Under the pieces are notes generated by a model, which was given only the letters and a program-made list of their open reading frames with translations, searched no databases and had not been told where the DNA came from. Source: Candidatus Fermentibacterota bacterium (GTDB lineage: Bacteria > Fermentibacterota > Fermentibacteria > Fermentibacterales > JCC-6). From it: a stretch of 64,000 nucleotides of DNA. Location: positions 384,001 through 448,000 of the forward strand of contig CAWJQI010000001.1 of the NCBI GenBank assembly GCA_963845085.1. Reading direction: 5' to 3'. The translations under genes and the position numbers were made by a program. Every line of letters begins with the position of its first letter. The stretch's first letter is position 1. Positions 49,913 through 64,000 of the stretch are shown piece by piece.

Positions 49913-49916
<4 letters not shown>
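48919..49916 (+). CDS. Mrr-like type IV restriction endonuclease (frameshift near the 5' end)
   Basis: FEILVGHLLTALGF..GKTGDGGVD..VQAKRY..FITTADF..LINGRQLVDL Mrr_cat motifs. Confidence 0.85.
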
Positions 49917-53055
<3,139 letters not shown>

Positions 53056-53261: not shown

Positions 53262-53822
53262 TCAGACAGGTATCAGAACCGCCGGCAGGGAATCATGACT
53301 GGACAGCTTGTTGCAATGGTAACGGTGTTTTTCCCCAAGTTCGGCAATAAGGAGGTTGGCCTGCTCCAATGAGAGCCTTTCCTCGATTACCGCAAGGTTC
53401 AACAGGTCTCGGGTGGTGACAAGTCTGTCCAGAATCCCGATTCTCCTGCTGCTGTAATGAAGCACCTGTTCTTTCGTCACATGCGAGAATACACCCCTCT
53501 GTAGCTGCATAGGCAAGGCTCGAAGCCTCACCTTCGCCGAGACCGGCTTGCCTAATAGATAAGTGAAGATTCACAACATCAATTGAATCAGGGTCAACCA
53601 CCTTAAGTGCCCCTGCCTCCAGAAGAGTGTCCAGCATTGTTCTCTGAGCCGGATCCATAATCTCTTTGAGAACGCTCCGGGTGATCACCAGCCGGAAGTA
53701 CACGCTTCTGTGAGTATGGGAAAACTCTTCAGACGCAGGAAATTGATGAGAATGCAGCTGTCCGCCACCAGCAGGGGTGTTTCCCGCTGCTGCTTTGTGG
53801 GCGGTGAAGGATGGCTAACCAA
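53262..53822 (-). CDS. PIN-domain (DUF3368-like) protein, frameshifted
   Basis: LVADSCILINF, V..E, LGEGEASSLAYA..LACDE. Confidence 0.7.
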
Positions 53823-55050
53823 TGGGCTCCAGAGACGAGACTGCCTCCTCCACCTCTTCCCTGCCAATATCCGCCAAGGAAGCGATCTCGACAATTCTTC
53901 CGGTGGTCACCAACCCCCTTCGATAGGCTTCCAGTGCCAGGCCCATAAGCCTGTCCCTGAAACTTGATCCCTGGTCTTCCCTGCAGATGGAAGGTGACCG
54001 GAACATCCCATTGAAACTCTTCAAACCGCCATTTCTGAGACTACTGAGAAAGCCGTCCCTTTCCTTTTCCGAAAGAAGACGGATGTTGGCCAACCTGTAC
54101 ACAGCAGTTTCGGGGCTTACCCCGAAATGATCCGCGAGCAGAAGGATATCGTAGAGCTGAATGCTCTGCTCCACGGCAATGTTGCGTTCGTTTGCAGAAA
54201 CCTCGGAATGCTCATTAAAGGAAGAGTACTCCACCCGGGAAGGCTTCCCCTTGCCACAGGCATGAATGAAACGCATGAAGCCTTCTTCAGGCGCGAGAAA
54301 CGCTGCAGCAAATGAATTGGCTCTGACCTCACGCAACGCATCAGCATCGGAATTCTGGCTGATGACCACCCTGGAATCGTGCCTGAGATCAAGAAGAACA
54401 TGGGCGAATTCATCGCCAGGGAAAACCTTTGTCTTGCCGGAGAGTGGCTGGAATTGACAAAAACATGGAACCCGTTGTCTTGCATGATGGAGATACCCGA
54501 TATCTCCGCAGAGAGGGGTACGAGGCTCGCGCATACACCACTATCAGACAGAACGTTGACGACATTCTCTATCGGAGCGTAGCCAAGCCCAAGTCTCTGC
54601 CGTTCCTGAGCAGCAATCCTCTCCCCTTGCCGAATTGACTCTATCTTGGAGAAAGGGGTCTGCATCCTGTAGCATGGCATTGATTCGGATGCCCGGGGGA
54701 ACCGCAAGCTTCTCCTCCAACCAGGAGACTTCCTGGCCGATCCTGACGCACTTCCGAACACAGTCCTGAGCTTCTTCATTCTCCTGAAGACCCGGATCGG
54801 CCCTGAGTAGCATAACTGTTGGGTCAATACCTTCGGGACTCGCCAAAAGAGATTCCAAACCGCACCCCAACCGGTATGCCATGTTCTCGAGCACCGCGAT
54901 TCCGGGATTCCTCATACCCGACTCGTACGAAGCCAGAGCGGATCGGGACACACCAAGCCATCTGGCCAGAGTTTCCTGGGAGAGACCCTGTCTCTCCCGG
55001 AAGCCCCTCAGCCTTTGCGCAAGACTTTCTTCAGTCAACGTATCCTCCAA
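53815..55050 (-). CDS. Xre-HTH + ImmA/IrrE metallopeptidase protein, frameshifted
   Basis: LRGFRERQGLSQETLA..VSRS.LASYESG HTH; RQRFSLA(H)EFAH (one base missing) and E.RAN.FAAAFL.P. Confidence 0.85.
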
Positions 55051-56052: not shown

Positions 56053-57124
56053 TCACGGAACCTCGTACAAAAGAACCTGCACAAACTCCGCTGAAGGGTC
56101 GAAGGTGAACCCCGCCATGCCCCAAGGGCTGATTCGGATGTCCAGGTATCTGCCATTCACAGGAGTTCCGTCAATCCTGACGTAAGTGATGAGATTGCCA
56201 TTCTGATCGTAAACACGAAAAAGGGGCGGATCGGATCCACCTACTCTGGCCCAGATCAGGGAGTTCCTGTCGATGCCCAGGGAAGTCACCGTAAGCCAGG
56301 ACTCCTGCGGGGTGTAGGTAATGCTCATACCCAACCGGTTGGCAAAGCTGGTGTAGTATTCCTGTTCCCTGTTGGTGTCCTCTTCAGTCAACTCTGCCAG
56401 GGGGAATTCATCCTCGATCAAATCAAGAAGCTCCCCTTCAGGTGAGCACTTCAGGATTCTGAGTTGTGATTCCGTCGACTCCGAAATGTAGACATTACCT
56501 TGAGCGTCAACGGTTGCAACAGGTTCCTCAGTACACATTCGATAAAGCTGCCTTCGGAGTGGTCAATCCTGCTGGAGTCACTCCAGAACACCACTGGAAG
56601 GGGGTTACCCGCATTGTACAACCCGTATTGTGCGGTGCGAACCGGAACCTGCCCTGCGATGAAGGCCCAACTCCTGATAGCTGTGAAAGTGCTATCGCGG
56701 TTGCCAAGCATCTTATGCAGCATCGGTCGGGTGTAACTGTCGTTGAGTCCCAGCCACTCGGCGCTTTCAGCGTTGAATGTGTTCAATCCCCTCGCGTCAG
56801 AAACAAACAGAAGTTCAGACTGGGTAAGTGCAACACCGCAGGGCTCGCTGAATTCACCCGGACCTTCGCCTTTCTTCCCATAGCACATCATCAACTCACC
56901 GGAACTTGAAAACCTTCTAACTTCAGCCCGCAAAGGATCCACAACGAAGACCGATCCGTCAGGTCCATGACAGATATCTCTAACACTCGCGAACCCGTAA
57001 TCACTGTAGAAATTCTCGTCGCCTATACCACCTGGTGAGCTATGACGAGAGTATCAGGTTGCTCATCAGTCACATAACTCTCCGGTTGATTCGCACACGA
57101 GGTAATGAGAAAAACAACCGTCAT
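56053..57124 (-). CDS. Six-bladed beta-propeller/NHL-like lipoprotein C (frameshifted)
   Basis: Lipobox-like FLITSC, DGSVFVVD, YGKKGEGPGEFSEP, VDAQGNVYI, VYDQNGN; pieces in three frames. Confidence 0.75.
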
Positions 57125-57287: not shown

Positions 57288-57945
57288 TTATTCTCCACCC
57301 GTCACACCCTTATCCCTGAAATAAGCAGCCAGCCTTTGCCAAAGCCGTGAATGCACCTTCGGTCTGTTTCTTGTTATCTCGAACCATGCGGCATCAGGGT
57401 ACCGGGCGTACAACGCCTGATCTTTCTCAGAAGATGGTGACCGGTCCGCTTCCCTGATTCGATTTTCTGGATGGTGAACGGTGAGAAGTCAAAAGACTAA
57501 CCCGAACTCCCGAAGTGAAAGACCCAGGTCTTGTACGGAACTCCCTTGCCTCTTCTGCACCGAAGTTCTCCATTGCAGCCGGCCTCGAATACAAGGCAGG
57601 ATGGTCCACGCCTGCCCGATGGTTGTCAGTAGTACGAATGGATCAATCTCATAAGGACTTATCCCGGAAGCAGCGCAGTACTCCGGATAGGCAGGGTTTT
57701 CCCTTGAAGGGATCCTGTCCTCTAAAGGAGGGAAAGAGCTGTTCCAAGAAGAAGCTCTTCCGGGCGAGGGGAAGTTCCGGTCCGACAGACACTGCGTCCG
57801 GTTGCCTGAGGTAAGCGTCTTCGTATGTAAACAGGAAACCTTTCTTCCCGTCAGGATCTGTGTGCTGTTCAAGCCTGCCGGCATAGTCACGCGTCCTTCT
57901 GCCTTCCGCAAAAACATCAACGCCGGGCATTTCACGGTCGCGCAT
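57288..57945 (-). CDS. HipA N-terminal (HipS-like) domain fused to C-terminal Xre HTH, frameshifted
   Basis: AGRL..F.F.Y..YL..SVGPELPL..LFPSF/EDRIP then LGLSLREFGLVFDFSPFTIQKIESG. Confidence 0.75.
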
Positions 57946-58851
57946 TATTCAGCTCCTCCGCTCTCTTCATGATAAGCCTCTGGATCGATTTTGCTCGTTC
58001 TTCTGAAAGGAATTTCCAGCCAGTAAGCGTCATGAACCTGTCCACATCAACCCGTCGCTTGAACTCCTCTACCACGGAAGCAAAACCAAGCCTTCCGAAT
58101 TCCACGACATAGTCATTCATCTCCGGATCGGGGTTTGCGTTGGTGGCAATCCTCCCCCTCGGGCTGTGATCAGCCCGAAGGAAAGCAGCGTCCTCAATCC
58201 CGAGGTAGGAAGGATTGTCATAGAAGGGTGCCAGAGTGTACTGCCCACCCTTTTCGATAAAGCCCAGGTTCCTGCCGTGTCTGTCGTGGTTGCCTATCAG
58301 AGAATCGAAGAGGCACAGTTTGATGAAGCGCTCTATTTCAAATAGCCTGCCGGTTTTCTCGCCAATCACGCCAATCAGCGTCTCGCAATCGAATGAACCG
58401 CCCACGATGAAGTGGTGGATGTGTTGCAGCGATTCTTTCCTTCCCGTCGAATGAAGTTCCTCACCGCCAGCGCTGACACGCCGTTGAACCGGATCAGAAC
58501 GAAGTGAGGTATTCTGATCCCAAGAGAGTGCGCGATCTGGTTGCAGAGGTGCTCGGTGGCGGGAAGCTCGGGATACTCCTTCTCCTCAACCTTCAGAATG
58601 AAAGAAACGCCTTCCAGCCTGGCATCGTACTTCCTGAACTTGCCCTGAAGAAAGCTCGACACGACATCAGCGTCATTAACCGGCCGGCCGACTGAGCTCG
58701 TCCTGCGTCCGTTTGCTTACGTGCCAGGCCCGTGTAATTCGGCAAGCCCATCCACACCAAATGATTCCCGAAAACAGGCCGGATGCAGGCCGTAGTGTTC
58801 TTCCTGCCCTGCCTGCATCTCTTCACCGCAGTGAAAGCATCGCATTCTCAT
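57932..58851 (-). CDS. HipA-like kinase with N-terminal CxxC/HxxC, frameshifted
   Basis: MRMRCFHC..LHPACF, S.LQGKF.K, ILK..YPELPATEHLC, LIGNHDRHGRN, LAPFYD. Confidence 0.85.
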
Positions 58852-60013: not shown

Positions 60014-61150
60014 TTACCTGAGGAGATAGAGTTTCTGAAAGCCCTCTTCAGGGTCCAGTTCCCACGCGAGTATCCCGTTGGGTGTGATCTCGGTAGCCCA
60101 GCTCCAGCTGTCCTTTGGAAAAACGGCCTGACGAAGCGGGTTCCCATCGAGGTCGTAGATGTCGAAAAAGATGTCGGTACGGGTTCCCCGCCTTACCCAC
60201 AGGTTCCGGTCCGGTCCGACCCCGACATCGCTTATCATGTTCCTGTGCTGACAGGGATGAAAGTCAAAGCCCAGGGGCCTGCCACTGAGGCTCTGGTAAG
60301 AATAACTCGCAAAAATGCTCTCACGCTCTATCTCTTCACCGGTTTTCTCCACCGGAGCGATACTGCGCGTGATGTTGAGCACCTCCGCACCGGTTGAATC
60401 CCACCCCATGACCCGGTATTCAAACGGATCGATGGGAGCGAAGTAGACAACTCCTTCCCCATCTCCGCCGGTGATCGGCAACTCAAGGCATTCATATCGG
60501 AACCATGCGCTTGGATTGTCATTGTAGTCGGCTTCCGTCATCCTCAGGGAGTCCTTCCAGAGAAGGATCTCCCACTCCCTTTCACCCCAGGCATGCATGC
60601 CGATCGTATGGCGGATGAAGTCGTTGTTCTGATCACCGTCACACCTGCACACAGAAAGCCATGAATTCGTAATGGGAGTGATGTGGTAGGGGGCGTTTTC
60701 TATCCACAGCCCTAATTCTTCCACGAATTCGAGTGAATCATCGAAGACGATGTAGCCCATCTTGTCAATCGAATTGATGCAGACCCGTCCATCCGGCATT
60801 ATGAACAATCCAGTGACATGGTTTGATTCCCCTGGTCCGCTTCCTCGGCGGGAAACCTGCCTGATATAGTTGCCCTCAAGGTCGAAGACCTTAAGACAGG
60901 CGGCGATCTCATCAAGAACAAATATCCTTCCCTGATCGTCGATACTCGCATCGATGATCGACCCGAAAATTGATGTTGAGTCGCCCAGCTCCCGACCAAT
61001 TTCAAGGGCACATTCGAGGGTGTCAACAGGAAGCGCAGCCTGATATTCATTTGTTTCTACGGGATGGTTCCCTCCGCTGCATCCTGCCGCGAGCGCAATG
61101 CAGCAGGCGAGGACGGCTGAAATGCGTACCGTGGCAGTACCTGTTCCCAA
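60014..61150 (-). CDS. Six-bladed beta-propeller lipoprotein B
   Basis: Lipobox LAAGC, IDDQGRIFVLD, FDLEGNYIRQVSRRGSGPGE; paralog of 62159-63331; start assumed at TTG 61150. Confidence 0.85.
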   Translation of the reverse strand: MGTGTATVRISAVLACCIALAAGCSGGNHPVETNEYQAALPVDTLECALEIGRELGDSTSIFGSIIDASIDDQGRIFVLDEIAACLKVFDLEGNYIRQVSRRGSGPGESNHVTGLFIMPDGRVCINSIDKMGYIVFDDSLEFVEELGLWIENAPYHITPITNSWLSVCRCDGDQNNDFIRHTIGMHAWGEREWEILLWKDSLRMTEADYNDNPSAWFRYECLELPITGGDGEGVVYFAPIDPFEYRVMGWDSTGAEVLNITRSIAPVEKTGEEIERESIFASYSYQSLSGRPLGFDFHPCQHRNMISDVGVGPDRNLWVRRGTRTDIFFDIYDLDGNPLRQAVFPKDSWSWATEITPNGILAWELDPEEGFQKLYLLR

Positions 61151-61191
61151 TCGGTTCCTGGGGTTTTCGCTGCTGCGCTCAGGGCGAACAA

Positions 61192-61371
61192 TCAATCCAT
61201 CTCTCCCATCATGCACTGGGGAGACGGCATTGCCCCGCCGGGCCAGCACATGATGTAGTCTTCCCCACCGCTGATGCAATTGCTTTTTGGAATCACTCCA
61301 TTCTTGCAGTCCTTGATACCTCTGCCTGTACTGCCGATTTCGACAAGCTCAGGGTTGCTCCACTCCATCAT
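61192..61371 (-). CDS. Putative RiPP precursor P1 (ScmA-like, four CxxG motifs)
   Basis: MMEWSNPELVEIG leader; core CKNG, CISG, CWPG, CMMG; RBS AAAGGTGA. Confidence 0.8.
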   Translation of the reverse strand: MMEWSNPELVEIGSTGRGIKDCKNGVIPKSNCISGGEDYIMCWPGGAMPSPQCMMGEMD

Positions 61372-61567
61372 CTTCACCTTTCGTTAAGAAGTTCCTGGAT
61401 TTCTGGAATCATCAGCATTGCTGAAACAACCAAGGAATTGTTTACTCGCCAATGTCTTGGAGAAACCAGCCGTATCAGACTGGCATTTGGCTTGGCGCCT
61501 CAACTTAACGGGCGCACACCCCGAACATCCGATGGAAAACCGAACTGCTTCTTGCTGCATCTGATGG

Positions 61568-62122
61568 TCATCCACCTTCTTTCCCGGAGTTTCCCGGCAT
61601 TCTAAAACCGATGGGATCGCATTTCTTCGGCTTCGGTGACTCAATAAGGCTTTTAATGCCTTCCACCATGCCGACCAGAATGGAGTCGTGCTGTATGACC
61701 CGCTCTTCGAGTTTTTCAAGCCTGCGAGAGAGAACCTCATTGGAGAATACCAGTTCCCTCAACTTCACGAACACCCTAATTATGAACACACTCATCCTGG
61801 CGGCTTGTTCCGAGTTCAGAACATTTGCTGCCTGAAGGGCTCCGTGCTCGGTAAAAACCAGAGGGAGCTTTCTCCTTCCTCCCCAGCTCGATCTTGTTGT
61901 CGCATTTTGCGACATCAAGATCATGTGCTCTTCCCCTGTCAACTGAAACATGAAATCTTCAGGAAACTTGGAAATGTTTCTTCGTACCTGTTCATTCAAC
62001 CGTCTCGTCTCCACACCGTACAGCTTGGCAAGATCAGAATCAGAAATTACACTGACGCCGCGGACATTGATGATGCTCAATGCAATCTTCCGCTCAACGA
62101 GGGCATCAGATTCTTCGGACAA
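61568..62122 (-). CDS. ORF6N-domain DNA-binding protein
   Basis: VRGVSVISDSDLAKLYGVETRRLNEQVRRN..FPEDFMFQLT, FTEHGA, IIRVFVKLRE, PIGF. Confidence 0.9.
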   Translation of the reverse strand: MSEESDALVERKIALSIINVRGVSVISDSDLAKLYGVETRRLNEQVRRNISKFPEDFMFQLTGEEHMILMSQNATTRSSWGGRRKLPLVFTEHGALQAANVLNSEQAARMSVFIIRVFVKLRELVFSNEVLSRRLEKLEERVIQHDSILVGMVEGIKSLIESPKPKKCDPIGFRMPGNSGKEGG

Positions 62123-62158
62123 TTCTGTTGAGGTTCCCTTCGTTCATCTTGATGACAA

Positions 62159-63331
62159 TCACCTGATCAGGAAAAGTTTCTGATAGCCCTCTTCAGGGTC
62201 CAGCTCCCACGCGAGTATCCCGTGAGGGGTGATCTCGGTAGCCCAGACCCAGCTGTCCTTCGGAAATACGGCCTGACGAAGCGGGTTGCCCTCGAGGTCG
62301 TAGATGTCGAAAAAGAGATCGGTGCGAGTTCCCCGCCTTACCCACAGGTTCCGGTCCGGTCCGATCCCGACATCGCTGATCATGTTCTTATAGGGAGACG
62401 GATGGAACTCGAACATCAGGGGCCTCCCGCCCCTCAGTGGAAAGTAGTCGTTCACGTACGAGATCTCGTACTCGATCTCCGAGTCTGTCTTCAGAACGGG
62501 TGCAATGCTCCTGGTGAAGTTGAGGATCTCAGTGCCTGTCGAGTCCCAGCCGATCACCCTGTACTCAAAGGGGTCAACGGGTGCAAAAAACGTTCGCCCT
62601 GCTCCATCGCCTCCGGGAGCGTACAATTCGAACCAGCAGAAAACATAGAATTCCGATGGATCTCTGTTGAATTCGGCATCACTAATCTCCAGGGAGTCCT
62701 TCCAGAGAAGCTCGGTCATCTCGGCCTCGCCCCATCGGTAGATGCCCACAGTATGTCGCGTGACATCAGGAGTCGGGCTTCCATCATACCTGCAGGCAAG
62801 AATCCTGTCGTTCGAAATCGGGGTGACATGATAGGGCGGGTTTTCACACCAGAGCCGGACTTCCTCAAGCAGTTCGAGTGAATCGTCAAACATGACGTAA
62901 CCCCATTTGTTTGCCTCTGTGACGGCAATCCTGCCATCGGGCATGATGAAGAGTCCCTGGGGACACATAAGTTCACCCGGTCCGTCTCCGCGCCTGGACA
63001 GCTGCTGCAGGTAGTTTCCCTGCAGGTCGTACACTTTAATGCAGGCGGCTATCTCGTCCAGCACGAAAATGCGTCCCAGGTCGTCAATTCCGGCGGCGCG
63101 AATTGAGCCGAAGATCTCTGTGGAGTCGCCGATCTCCTGACCAATCTCGATAACTGCTTGAAGTGTATCGATTTGAGCGGCGATGTCGTCATCCAGACCC
63201 TTCCCGGGATCATCGGAACCACAGCCTGAAAGCGAGCAGAAAGCCAGAAAGCCGTTCAGGATATGACTAAGGGTACGGGCTGCCCCGGGAAGGCAACATG
63301 CTTGGGTGACACAAATCTGTTTCAAGGCCAT
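62159..63331 (-). CDS. Six-bladed beta-propeller lipoprotein A
   Basis: AGGAG RBS, lipobox LSGC, IDDLGRIFVLD, SRRGDGPGELMCP; paralog of 60014-61150. Confidence 0.85.
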   Translation of the reverse strand: MALKQICVTQACCLPGAARTLSHILNGFLAFCSLSGCGSDDPGKGLDDDIAAQIDTLQAVIEIGQEIGDSTEIFGSIRAAGIDDLGRIFVLDEIAACIKVYDLQGNYLQQLSRRGDGPGELMCPQGLFIMPDGRIAVTEANKWGYVMFDDSLELLEEVRLWCENPPYHVTPISNDRILACRYDGSPTPDVTRHTVGIYRWGEAEMTELLWKDSLEISDAEFNRDPSEFYVFCWFELYAPGGDGAGRTFFAPVDPFEYRVIGWDSTGTEILNFTRSIAPVLKTDSEIEYEISYVNDYFPLRGGRPLMFEFHPSPYKNMISDVGIGPDRNLWVRRGTRTDLFFDIYDLEGNPLRQAVFPKDSWVWATEITPHGILAWELDPEEGYQKLFLIR

Positions 63332-63363
63332 ACTCCTGCGTTCTTTAGCAGGTTGTTTCCAGG

Positions 63364-63548
63364 CTACCAGATACTGCTTCCCGGAGTGCAGACCGGGAAG
63401 GCAATGGCTTCGCCACCCCAGCATTCCACATAGAAGAGTGTTCCTCCGCCGACGCAATCATTTCTTCGGAGCGTTTCCATTTACACATGTTTTCTTGAGC
63501 CCTATTCTCCCCATCCAGGGTGATCAGTTCAGGGTTGGTCCAATCCAT
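63364..63548 (-). CDS. Putative RiPP precursor P2 (ScmA-like, four CxxG motifs), split by two apparent indels
   Basis: Frame 1 MDWTNPELITLDGEN, frame 2 GLKKTCVNGNAPK, frame 3 NDCVGGGTLFYVECWGGEAIAFPVCTPGSSIW*; RBS AAAGGAG. Confidence 0.75.
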
Positions 63549-63607
63549 GAAGACATCTCCTTTCCTTATTGCAGCAGCTTTAAATGCTTCCAAACGGGCG
63601 GCCAGCA

Positions 63608-64000
63608 TCAACAGCATGCTTCATAGTGATTCACTTTCAGTCTTCTGGTAGCGGGAAACAGGTTTGCCTTCTCAGCCTCTTCGCAAAACCAGAACGGTGC
63701 CCAGAGGCTCTTCGAACGGTAGTAATTCTGGGCTACGCAGCTTCCGTTGCATGCCTTTTTAACCAGGCACTCACTGCAGATGCCCTCGAGTTTTTCCGGG
63801 AGACCTTCGCGGAGCGCTTTCAACACTTCGGAATTCATCCAGACATCTTCCAAACTGTCGATGCTTGAATGCCCGAACACGAGTTCGGGAACCGACTCCC
63901 CGATGCCGCAGAGCGAGTACGAACCGTCGGCAAGAACGCCAAGGATGTTCTTGATTCCGCACACTCCGCAACCGCCGCCCTTTTCGCCAAGCATTTTCCC
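63608..64000 (-). CDS. Radical SAM/SPASM protein C-terminus, SynChlorMet ScmF-like (runs off window)
   Basis: CGIKNILGVLADGSYSLCGIG..LVFG, LREGLP..LEGICSECLVKKACNGSCVAQNYY..LWAPFWFC...LFP recalled as typical of ScmF. Confidence 0.8.
   Translation of the reverse strand, partial: GKMLGEKGGGCGVCGIKNILGVLADGSYSLCGIGESVPELVFGHSSIDSLEDVWMNSEVLKALREGLPEKLEGICSECLVKKACNGSCVAQNYYRSKSLWAPFWFCEEAEKANLFPATRRLKVNHYEACC

Follow-up and report, generated by a model that had tools for sequence, protein, structure and literature searches.

Peptide-propeller modules in a derived SynChlorMet-type cassette of Fermentibacterota, with lipoproteins that may confer cognate immunity

The 64,000-nucleotide stretch analysed here (the window; G000:C1:384001-448000) belongs to a 2.45-Mb, 88% complete assembly of a Candidatus Fermentibacterota bacterium. 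At its end, on the minus strand, lies what appears to be a cassette for a peptide made on the ribosome and modified after translation (RiPP). It reads radical S-adenosylmethionine (rSAM) enzyme of the ScmF type, precursor peptide P2, lipoprotein A, ORF6N-domain protein, precursor peptide P1, and lipoprotein B, an order already given in a first-pass annotation of this DNA and borne out by the window sequence. The reading that we favor, at a probability of roughly 0.4, is a derived SynChlorMet RiPP system built of modules, each a peptide with a cognate immunity lipoprotein; the wider statement, that polymorphic thioether peptides are paired with cognate binding lipoproteins of any kind, immunity proteins and receptors included, seems probable. 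The enzymes and the precursor class are already catalogued, and the link to a propeller lipoprotein is a new variant of an uncharacterised system. An undiscovered Scm precursor was considered and rejected, since the model TIGR04252 exists.

Results

Wherever a peptide of this family could be placed on its contig, a propeller lipoprotein follows it directly. A peptide profile gave eight strong matches in six of 70 genomes of the phylum, a wider profile adding none, and all eight, together with both distinct metagenome loci, have the peptide-then-propeller adjacency (10/10 of the placed peptides; nine further homologs in alignment A4 come without genomic context), a conservation that the first-pass annotation had proposed looking for. 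The adjacency also holds at G010:C104, where no Scm gene was found in the 6 kb examined, and at G057:C25; as background, the host genome has about 12 propeller genes. Nine weak matches of the wider profile comprise the P2 leader and eight sequences with neither cassette nor propeller.

ScmF-like genes occur in 50 of the 70 genomes, and the four that exceed the cut-off all stand in loci that read ScmD, ScmE, ScmF, a W-x-x-P-x-L peptide with four CxxG motifs, and a propeller. The same layout is seen at 3 of 13 metagenome loci, two of them distinct (L128, and L130, which equals L131). All six full loci (L050-L053, L128, and L131) carry ScmD-, ScmE-, and ScmF-type genes, including the ScmD and ScmE that had been suggested as partners for the window's enzyme; one ScmD (100.3 against a cut-off of 100) and two ScmE (598 and 581 against 400) scored above their models, as did ScmF (549-580 against 400). 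The ScmF proteins of propeller-linked loci and the fragment in the window form one clade (Shimodaira-Hasegawa [SH] support 99, quick tree), nested among canonical ScmF of mostly deltaproteobacterial type.

Two sets of control loci lack the propeller. In 30 of 72 matches from a Syntrophales-genome class, none of the ScmF loci has a propeller within 1.5 kb, 19 have a CxxG-repeat peptide, and 21 have ScmC; none of 35 other Scm-like loci of Fermentibacterota has a propeller after the peptide, and in 30 of them a Cys peptide has ScmF or a gene of the ScmC-like or S26-like kind as its neighbor. Because the controls lack it, the propeller partner marks one derived branch without ScmC and S26. ScmC, which the first-pass annotation had suggested as a partner, was not found beside ScmF in that branch: a ScmC-like seed from the host's second cassette, used there in place of the TIGR04249 model itself, had no match in L050-L053, L128, or L130/131. 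That second cassette (G000:C5:573068-576860; L002:7069-10861) reads PqqD, ScmE-like, ScmF-like (frameshifted), HprK-like, S26-like, and two Cys/Gly peptides with a Y-x-x-P-x-L leader and a conserved C-terminal tail, and it has no propeller. Most of the phylum's ScmF-like genes belong either to cassettes of this type or to those of one other type. Outside the phylum, precursors at canonical Scm loci (L123:4522-4908, L129, and L127) can reach about 12 CxxG repeats, or a single locus can hold as many as five precursors. At L255:1543-3263 (G036:C42), an AlbA-like rSAM gene, a 40-residue Cys-rich peptide, and an ABC-2 transporter lie just upstream of an Scm cassette.

The elements of the cassette in the window, all on the minus strand, are as follows.

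63608..64000, minus strand: C-terminal (SPASM) part of ScmF (TIGR04251, PF13186, alignment with full-length relatives, tree)
63364..63548, minus strand: precursor peptide P2, 60 residues, with W-x-NPEL leader, four CxxG motifs, and two frameshifts (three-frame translation)
62159..63331, minus strand: lipoprotein A, 390 residues, DUF5128/NHL-type six-bladed beta-propeller (PF17170, AlphaFold2, fold search)
62175..62387, minus strand: homogenised tract at the 3' end of A, pairing with 60030-60242 of B (blastn)
61568..62122, minus strand: ORF6N-domain protein (PF10543, E 4e-31)
61192..61371, minus strand: precursor peptide P1, 59 residues, with W-x-NPEL leader and four CxxG motifs (sequence)
60014..61195, minus strand: lipoprotein B, paralog of A (sequence, PF17170, identity to A)

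Both peptides were said to carry a W-x-NPEL leader and four CxxG motifs. The leaders are common to both and the P1 open reading frame (ORF) is intact, the only ORF with a WxxPxL leader and four CxxG motifs among 13,993 small ORFs of the host genome, but the four motifs of P2 can be read in the window only across two frameshifts. Short-read contigs of close relatives (depth 2-3) lack the base at window position 63459 in runs X1, X2, and X3 (two studies) and that at 63489 in runs X1 and X3 (one study). A public intact allele, P0011, which may derive from one of the same runs, equals P2 at 58 of 60 residues, the other two being the frameshift breaks, read as X. The frameshifts are most likely assembly errors, because other genes of the window are likewise broken into pieces; the host assembly is indel-rich. 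Frameshift-split genes lie at 49913-53055, 53815-55050, 57932-58662, and 56053-56942 (HsdR-like of type I restriction, helix-turn-helix plus fragment, HipA-like, and propeller genes). Across the 18-member peptide family, the Trp, all four Cys, and all four Gly positions are invariant. AlphaFold2 was uninformative for P1 (predicted local distance difference test [pLDDT] 42.5), and an Atlas search gave only leads under 0.9 for P1 and DUF5128 clusters for A.

Three of nine clade peptides match the ScmA model TIGR04252, at 14.5-22.5 bits against a cut-off of 35, and P1 does not match; because peptides of canonical loci fall short as well (best 28.1), the model is narrow.

Lipoproteins A and B proved to be paralogs with a nearly shared 3' end and a divergent center, as had been noted. 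They are 59% identical overall, 88% over mature residues 301-350, and 44-52% over residues 101-200, and a 213-nt tract near the 3' end is 92% identical in DNA (blastn) and 58-73% identical to two other pair members; it has been homogenised and may serve as a recombination handle. Both proteins have a lipobox-like Cys (LSGC and AAGC, read by eye against the usual lipobox consensus) and match PF17170 above the gathering score (30.4 and 35.2 bits against 22.9). The AlphaFold2 model of A (pLDDT 90.8) is an NHL-like six-bladed propeller with helical inserts, whose best fold matches are the NHL domains of Brat and Mei-P26 (Z 23.7 and 23.2; root mean square deviation [rmsd] 3.0 over 261 aligned residues for the top match), followed by PAL (Z 18.6, rmsd 3.4, 256 aligned) and the Bacteroides DUF4221 protein 3s9j (Z 18.5, 300 aligned). 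A shared fold alone shows no function. Variability within the propeller clade peaks at mature residues 181-200, 261-280, and 141-160, which in the model of A fall at or beside helical inserts and a long hairpin; in an alignment of 40 homologs, Gly, Pro, Trp, and Asp make up most of the invariant columns. Co-folding of A (residues 12-353) with the unmodified P2 core scored 0.01 against a mark of 0.32, controls not being folded, and is used neither way. The body of the peptide-less G062:C9 propeller groups with the L128 copy, and its last 90 nt (L141:2601-2690) share 83-84% identity with A and B but just 69% with L128, a mismatch that points to recombination at the 3' end.

The TTG start of B overlaps the P1 stop. 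A scan for promoters and terminators gave nothing useful on the coding strand. The ORF6N protein is probably a passenger; it was rejected as a component of the system. Related cassettes (L050-L053, L128, and L130) showed no ORF6N match. ORF6N pieces lie near one other propeller locus, L142. A second, near-identical copy of the DNA downstream of B, with internal deletions, is found at G000:C4:40-1622 (L003) and keeps only pieces of A, ORF6N, and B; it is possibly a strain variant, a recombination product, or an assembly artefact.

The rSAM gene in the window is ScmF-like, as first proposed, though only a fragment: it covers TIGR04251 positions 152-352 (307 bits, cut-off 400), the C-terminal ~200 residues, matches PF13186, and groups at SH 99 with six full-length proteins, of which four were scored, all above the cut-off. 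ScmF homology runs past the window to about 64246 and stops, and the N-terminal SAM-binding half is absent from the assembly. The DNA beyond about 64250 is unrelated: the last 9.6 kb of the contig have no match in seven of seven same-genus genomes, their tetranucleotide distance lies at the 97th-100th percentile (parts of the window itself also reach 91-98), and the one protein tested has its best named match in Nitrospirae (71% identical). By eye, this contig end (G000:C1:448280-457844) holds what we take to be an exosortase-like gene and an MSEP-type sorting tail. It is probably a chimeric join, and ScmD, ScmE, and the front of ScmF were likely lost through this mis-join; real decay or truncation is the less likely alternative. 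No near-identical full-length ScmF was found among the longer proteins (best 74%). No short-read contig of close relatives spans the ScmF junction or the DNA beyond.

The same layout recurs with an unrelated enzyme. Four of the about 12 host propellers directly follow a Cys-rich peptide, two of them behind a different rSAM type, at G000:C5:861557-858779 (L211) and C5:239525-237219 (L212), where Cys-rich peptide(s) precede a DUF5128 propeller. This second family has 15 loci in 12 of the 70 genomes. In eight, peptides (34-56 residues, called by eye) are followed directly by a propeller; in the remaining seven there is one with an intervening gene, one with the propeller upstream, three with none (one near a contig end), and two that end at the enzyme. 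The clearest array found is G067:C27 (L244:908-6321), with three modules of two types behind one enzyme: enzyme, peptide, propeller, two peptides, propeller, peptide, propeller. Each of the two peptide types corresponds to its own propeller clade (SH 100 and 99), and the clades share about 27% identity; phylum-wide, the matching peptide type lies upstream of 3/4 propellers of the first clade and 4/5 of the second, all in the host's genus. Arrays of peptide and propeller genes, a layout postulated for the window, exist in this second RiPP family, and L128 carries the Scm and second rSAM systems in tandem. Further propellers lie directly or closely beside other rSAM genes (G000:C4:732410-734906 [L213], L051:2205-4676, L253:6410-8940, and L254:5636-9124), with no precursor identified for three of the four.

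Discussion

The first-pass annotation had pictured a polymorphic array in which each peptide has its own lipoprotein. Adjacency, co-variation, and the arrays of the second family agree with that picture, but 12 of 23 propellers in the clade that holds A and B have no peptide upstream; nine follow a peptide and two follow such a propeller. Co-variation was assessed on nine pairs, dropping G010:C153 (partial) and L131 (duplicate) and using the first propeller where two follow. Identities of core and propeller co-vary (Mantel r=0.47, p=0.004), and those of leader and propeller do not (r=0.18, p=0.24). Such co-divergence would also arise through linkage alone. The P2-A pair lies nearer to the L128 pair (core 56%, propeller 72%) than to the P1-B pair (27% and 63%), which is plain co-descent because L128 also has the sister ScmF. 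The module can also depart from the maturase tree: the ScmF proteins of G049 and G045 are sisters (SH 99), and their propellers group elsewhere, with G036 (85/68) and G057 (100/99), respectively, the G045 core being nearest to that of G057. Since adjacent genes would swap together anyway, this discordance shows a mobile module, not binding.

Several observations weigh against cognate immunity modules. Co-divergence needs no more than linkage, and the nearest neighbor by core is also the nearest by propeller in only six of the nine pairs. The peptide-less propellers include the 71%-identical G062:C9 copy, and just one of the 12 has a cassette remnant (one has only 156 nt of upstream sequence). 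The nine peptide-linked propellers are not monophyletic; one dedicated clade for them was rejected (approximately unbiased test, p 2e-75). Because all seven propeller-linked ScmF fall in one clade, the 10/10 adjacency does not amount to 10 independent events. The partner at G010:C153 is partial (contig end) and of another subfamily, and canonical Scm cassettes, like the 35 other phylum loci, have no such partner. The host assembly lacks ScmD, ScmE, and half of ScmF, probably through the mis-join: nothing in it matches TIGR04248, and an ortholog of the ScmE of this clade was not found there either, which is literally the lack of an upstream RiPP recognition element (RRE) or partner rSAM that the first-pass annotation had named as counter-evidence. 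No leader peptidase is encoded in the module. Modification, export, toxicity, expression, and binding are all predicted.

One rival reading is that the genes are linked but have no cognate function. The DUF5128 lipoprotein family is large and mobile and accumulates in variable islands of envelope genes, and one member could have been captured once behind an Scm precursor and then been co-inherited and co-duplicated as a passenger. The single origin of the propeller-linked ScmF clade, the 12 of 23 propellers without a peptide, the 6-44 first-look propeller candidates per genome, the second propellers without their own peptide at L130 and L146, and a co-divergence that follows from adjacency would all fit such a history. 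We nevertheless consider it somewhat unlikely: the same gene order arose again beside a different, unrelated rSAM family and in five or more propeller lineages, the triple array of G067:C27 alternates peptides and propellers, and four of the about 12 host propellers stand directly after a Cys-rich peptide. A binder need not protect, either. The pairing and co-variation evidence would serve equally for a receptor of a strain-specific signal or for an envelope carrier on which the cross-linked peptide is held or put on display; the closest folds are ligand-binding NHL propellers, and orphan propellers could be eavesdropping receptors. Yet beside the modules of the loci listed, a length listing with a partial Pfam scan revealed no sensor kinase, TonB-dependent receptor, or regulator, a lipoprotein by itself gives no output in the cytoplasm, and a carrier would not persist after loss of its peptide, which together make this unlikely in our view. 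Three points favor immunity over receptor or carrier: the gene order, propellers that are kept once producer genes are gone, and the absence of any signalling partner that could be recognised.

That the propeller occupies the position of ScmC in canonical cassettes, and that PAL, lactonases, and phytase are among its fold neighbors, might suggest that it stands in for ScmC/S26 as a folding catalyst or a tailoring enzyme outside the cytoplasm, e.g., a hydrolase or lyase whose substrate is the modified core. Such an enzyme would not need to be duplicated with each substrate, however; very different propeller clades occupy the position, the invariant columns are mostly Gly, Pro, Trp, and Asp, and NHL binding domains outscore the enzyme folds, so that we regard this as very unlikely.

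The immunity reading can be set within known RiPP logic. PqqD/RRE domains bind aromatic-x-x-P-x-L leaders, and RRE-dependent rSAM/SPASM enzymes form thioethers on Cys-rich cores; the PqqD-type ScmD would bind the W-x-x-P-x-L leader and present the core to the rSAM/SPASM enzymes ScmE and ScmF. These would cross-link each Cys, most simply by joining its sulfur to the alpha-carbon of the invariant Gly at the third position after it, and the product would carry four small thioether rings, unnested, in a scaffold that is otherwise variable. Leader removal and export would depend on genes outside the module, candidates being ABC transporters near three loci and the S26-like peptidase of the host's second Scm-like cassette. 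The downstream lipoprotein would bind the mature product through its variable loops and helical inserts and protect the cell. One maturase set would serve several modules, and recombination would duplicate, swap, and delete them, propellers being retained after loss of producer genes. Intact propellers indeed stand behind deleted maturases at three loci, G057:C76 (ScmD stub), G057:C25 (ScmD and ScmE stubs, peptide kept), and G068:C2 (95-residue rSAM stub).

The clade resembles SynChlorMet (TIGR04248 ScmD, TIGR04249 ScmC, TIGR04250 ScmE, TIGR04251 ScmF, and TIGR04252 ScmA) in its ScmD-E-F order and in a Cys/CxxG-repeat precursor with an aromatic-x-x-P-x-L leader right after ScmF. It differs in that ScmF was found to have no ScmC, S26 peptidase, or nucleotidyltransferase next to it, the core always has four CxxG where SynChlorMet has a variable and often much longer repeat, the precursors are below the ScmA cut-off (best 22.5/35), and each precursor is followed by a propeller lipoprotein in modules that repeat or stand apart. 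A and B share fold, size, and lipobox with DUF5128/DUF4221 propeller lipoproteins (PF17170; 3s9j, 4raa) and NHL proteins, but here sub-clades track specific RiPP precursors, and the family has no assigned function in the sources searched. Bacteriocin immunity lipoproteins (NisI/SpaI type) and those polymorphic toxin-immunity arrays in which immunity genes can be orphaned share with our loci the toxin-then-immunity order, repeated modules, homogenised ends, and a second gene that outlasts the first, although homology to them would not be expected. Variable modules recur in a fixed order, two in the window and three in G067:C27, and the propeller is kept at the three deletion loci; the variable unit, however, is a small modified peptide rather than a toxin domain, and its toxicity is a prediction.

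Among sactipeptides with unnested or Cys-to-Gly links (streptosactin GggB, the QmpB product, and StsA), rSAM/SPASM enzymes likewise act on Cys-rich cores. As far as the accessible text of these reports goes, streptosactin has unnested 4-residue sactionine rings and a narrow spectrum, inhibiting only close kin (PMC9389541), and StsA forms Cys-to-Gly sactionines (PMC10288494); the 4-residue rings of the one and the Gly acceptors of the other fit the invariant CxxG seen here. The clade differs in having two rSAM enzymes and four motifs, with a linkage suggested by the invariant Cys and Gly, and its ScmE and ScmF are far below the WgkB-like and StsB cut-offs; the same accessible text mentions no lipoprotein partner for streptosactin or StsA (PMC9389541, PMC10288494). 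Ranthipeptide maturases of the TIGR04463/CefB type, to which CrpC, described in the accessible part of its report as installing ranthionine links (PMC13692751), belongs, are together with FlmE the best-scoring models for the second rSAM family, but its scores are far below cut-off (126-153 of 525) and its substrates are the 34-56-residue peptides. The open-access literature, with subscription journals largely outside its scope, gave no paper on the SynChlorMet cassette or on DUF5128 proteins as RiPP partners. Propellers similar to the DUF5128 type lie in Bacteroidales peptide clusters, so that the association may be known informally. In their accessible parts, PMC10352776 mentions no propellers or lipoproteins, PMC7470986 has no match to terms of this system, and PMC10288494 with one supplement file has no Scm terms, although its large dataset may lie outside this.

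It is possible, and we propose it tentatively, that Fermentibacterota have repeatedly recruited DUF5128 propellers to unrelated rSAM RiPP families as a generic, evolvable binding module, giving polymorphic arrays of peptide and immunity genes. If so, orphan immunity genes would remain after producer loss, and part of the phylum's propeller expansion would be an immunity repertoire against neighbors' peptides. The Scm branch is the simplest test case, since maturation involves just three genes, the 60-residue precursor contains four CxxG motifs and no more, and at least 18 natural variants exist, and natural cognate and non-cognate pairs are available for comparison of binding. Inspecting the DNA directly upstream of propellers behind an rSAM gene offers a route to missed precursors. 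If the pairing is physical, part of a large uncharacterised family of propeller lipoproteins would gain a role, and RiPPs would prove organisable like polymorphic toxin-immunity arrays.

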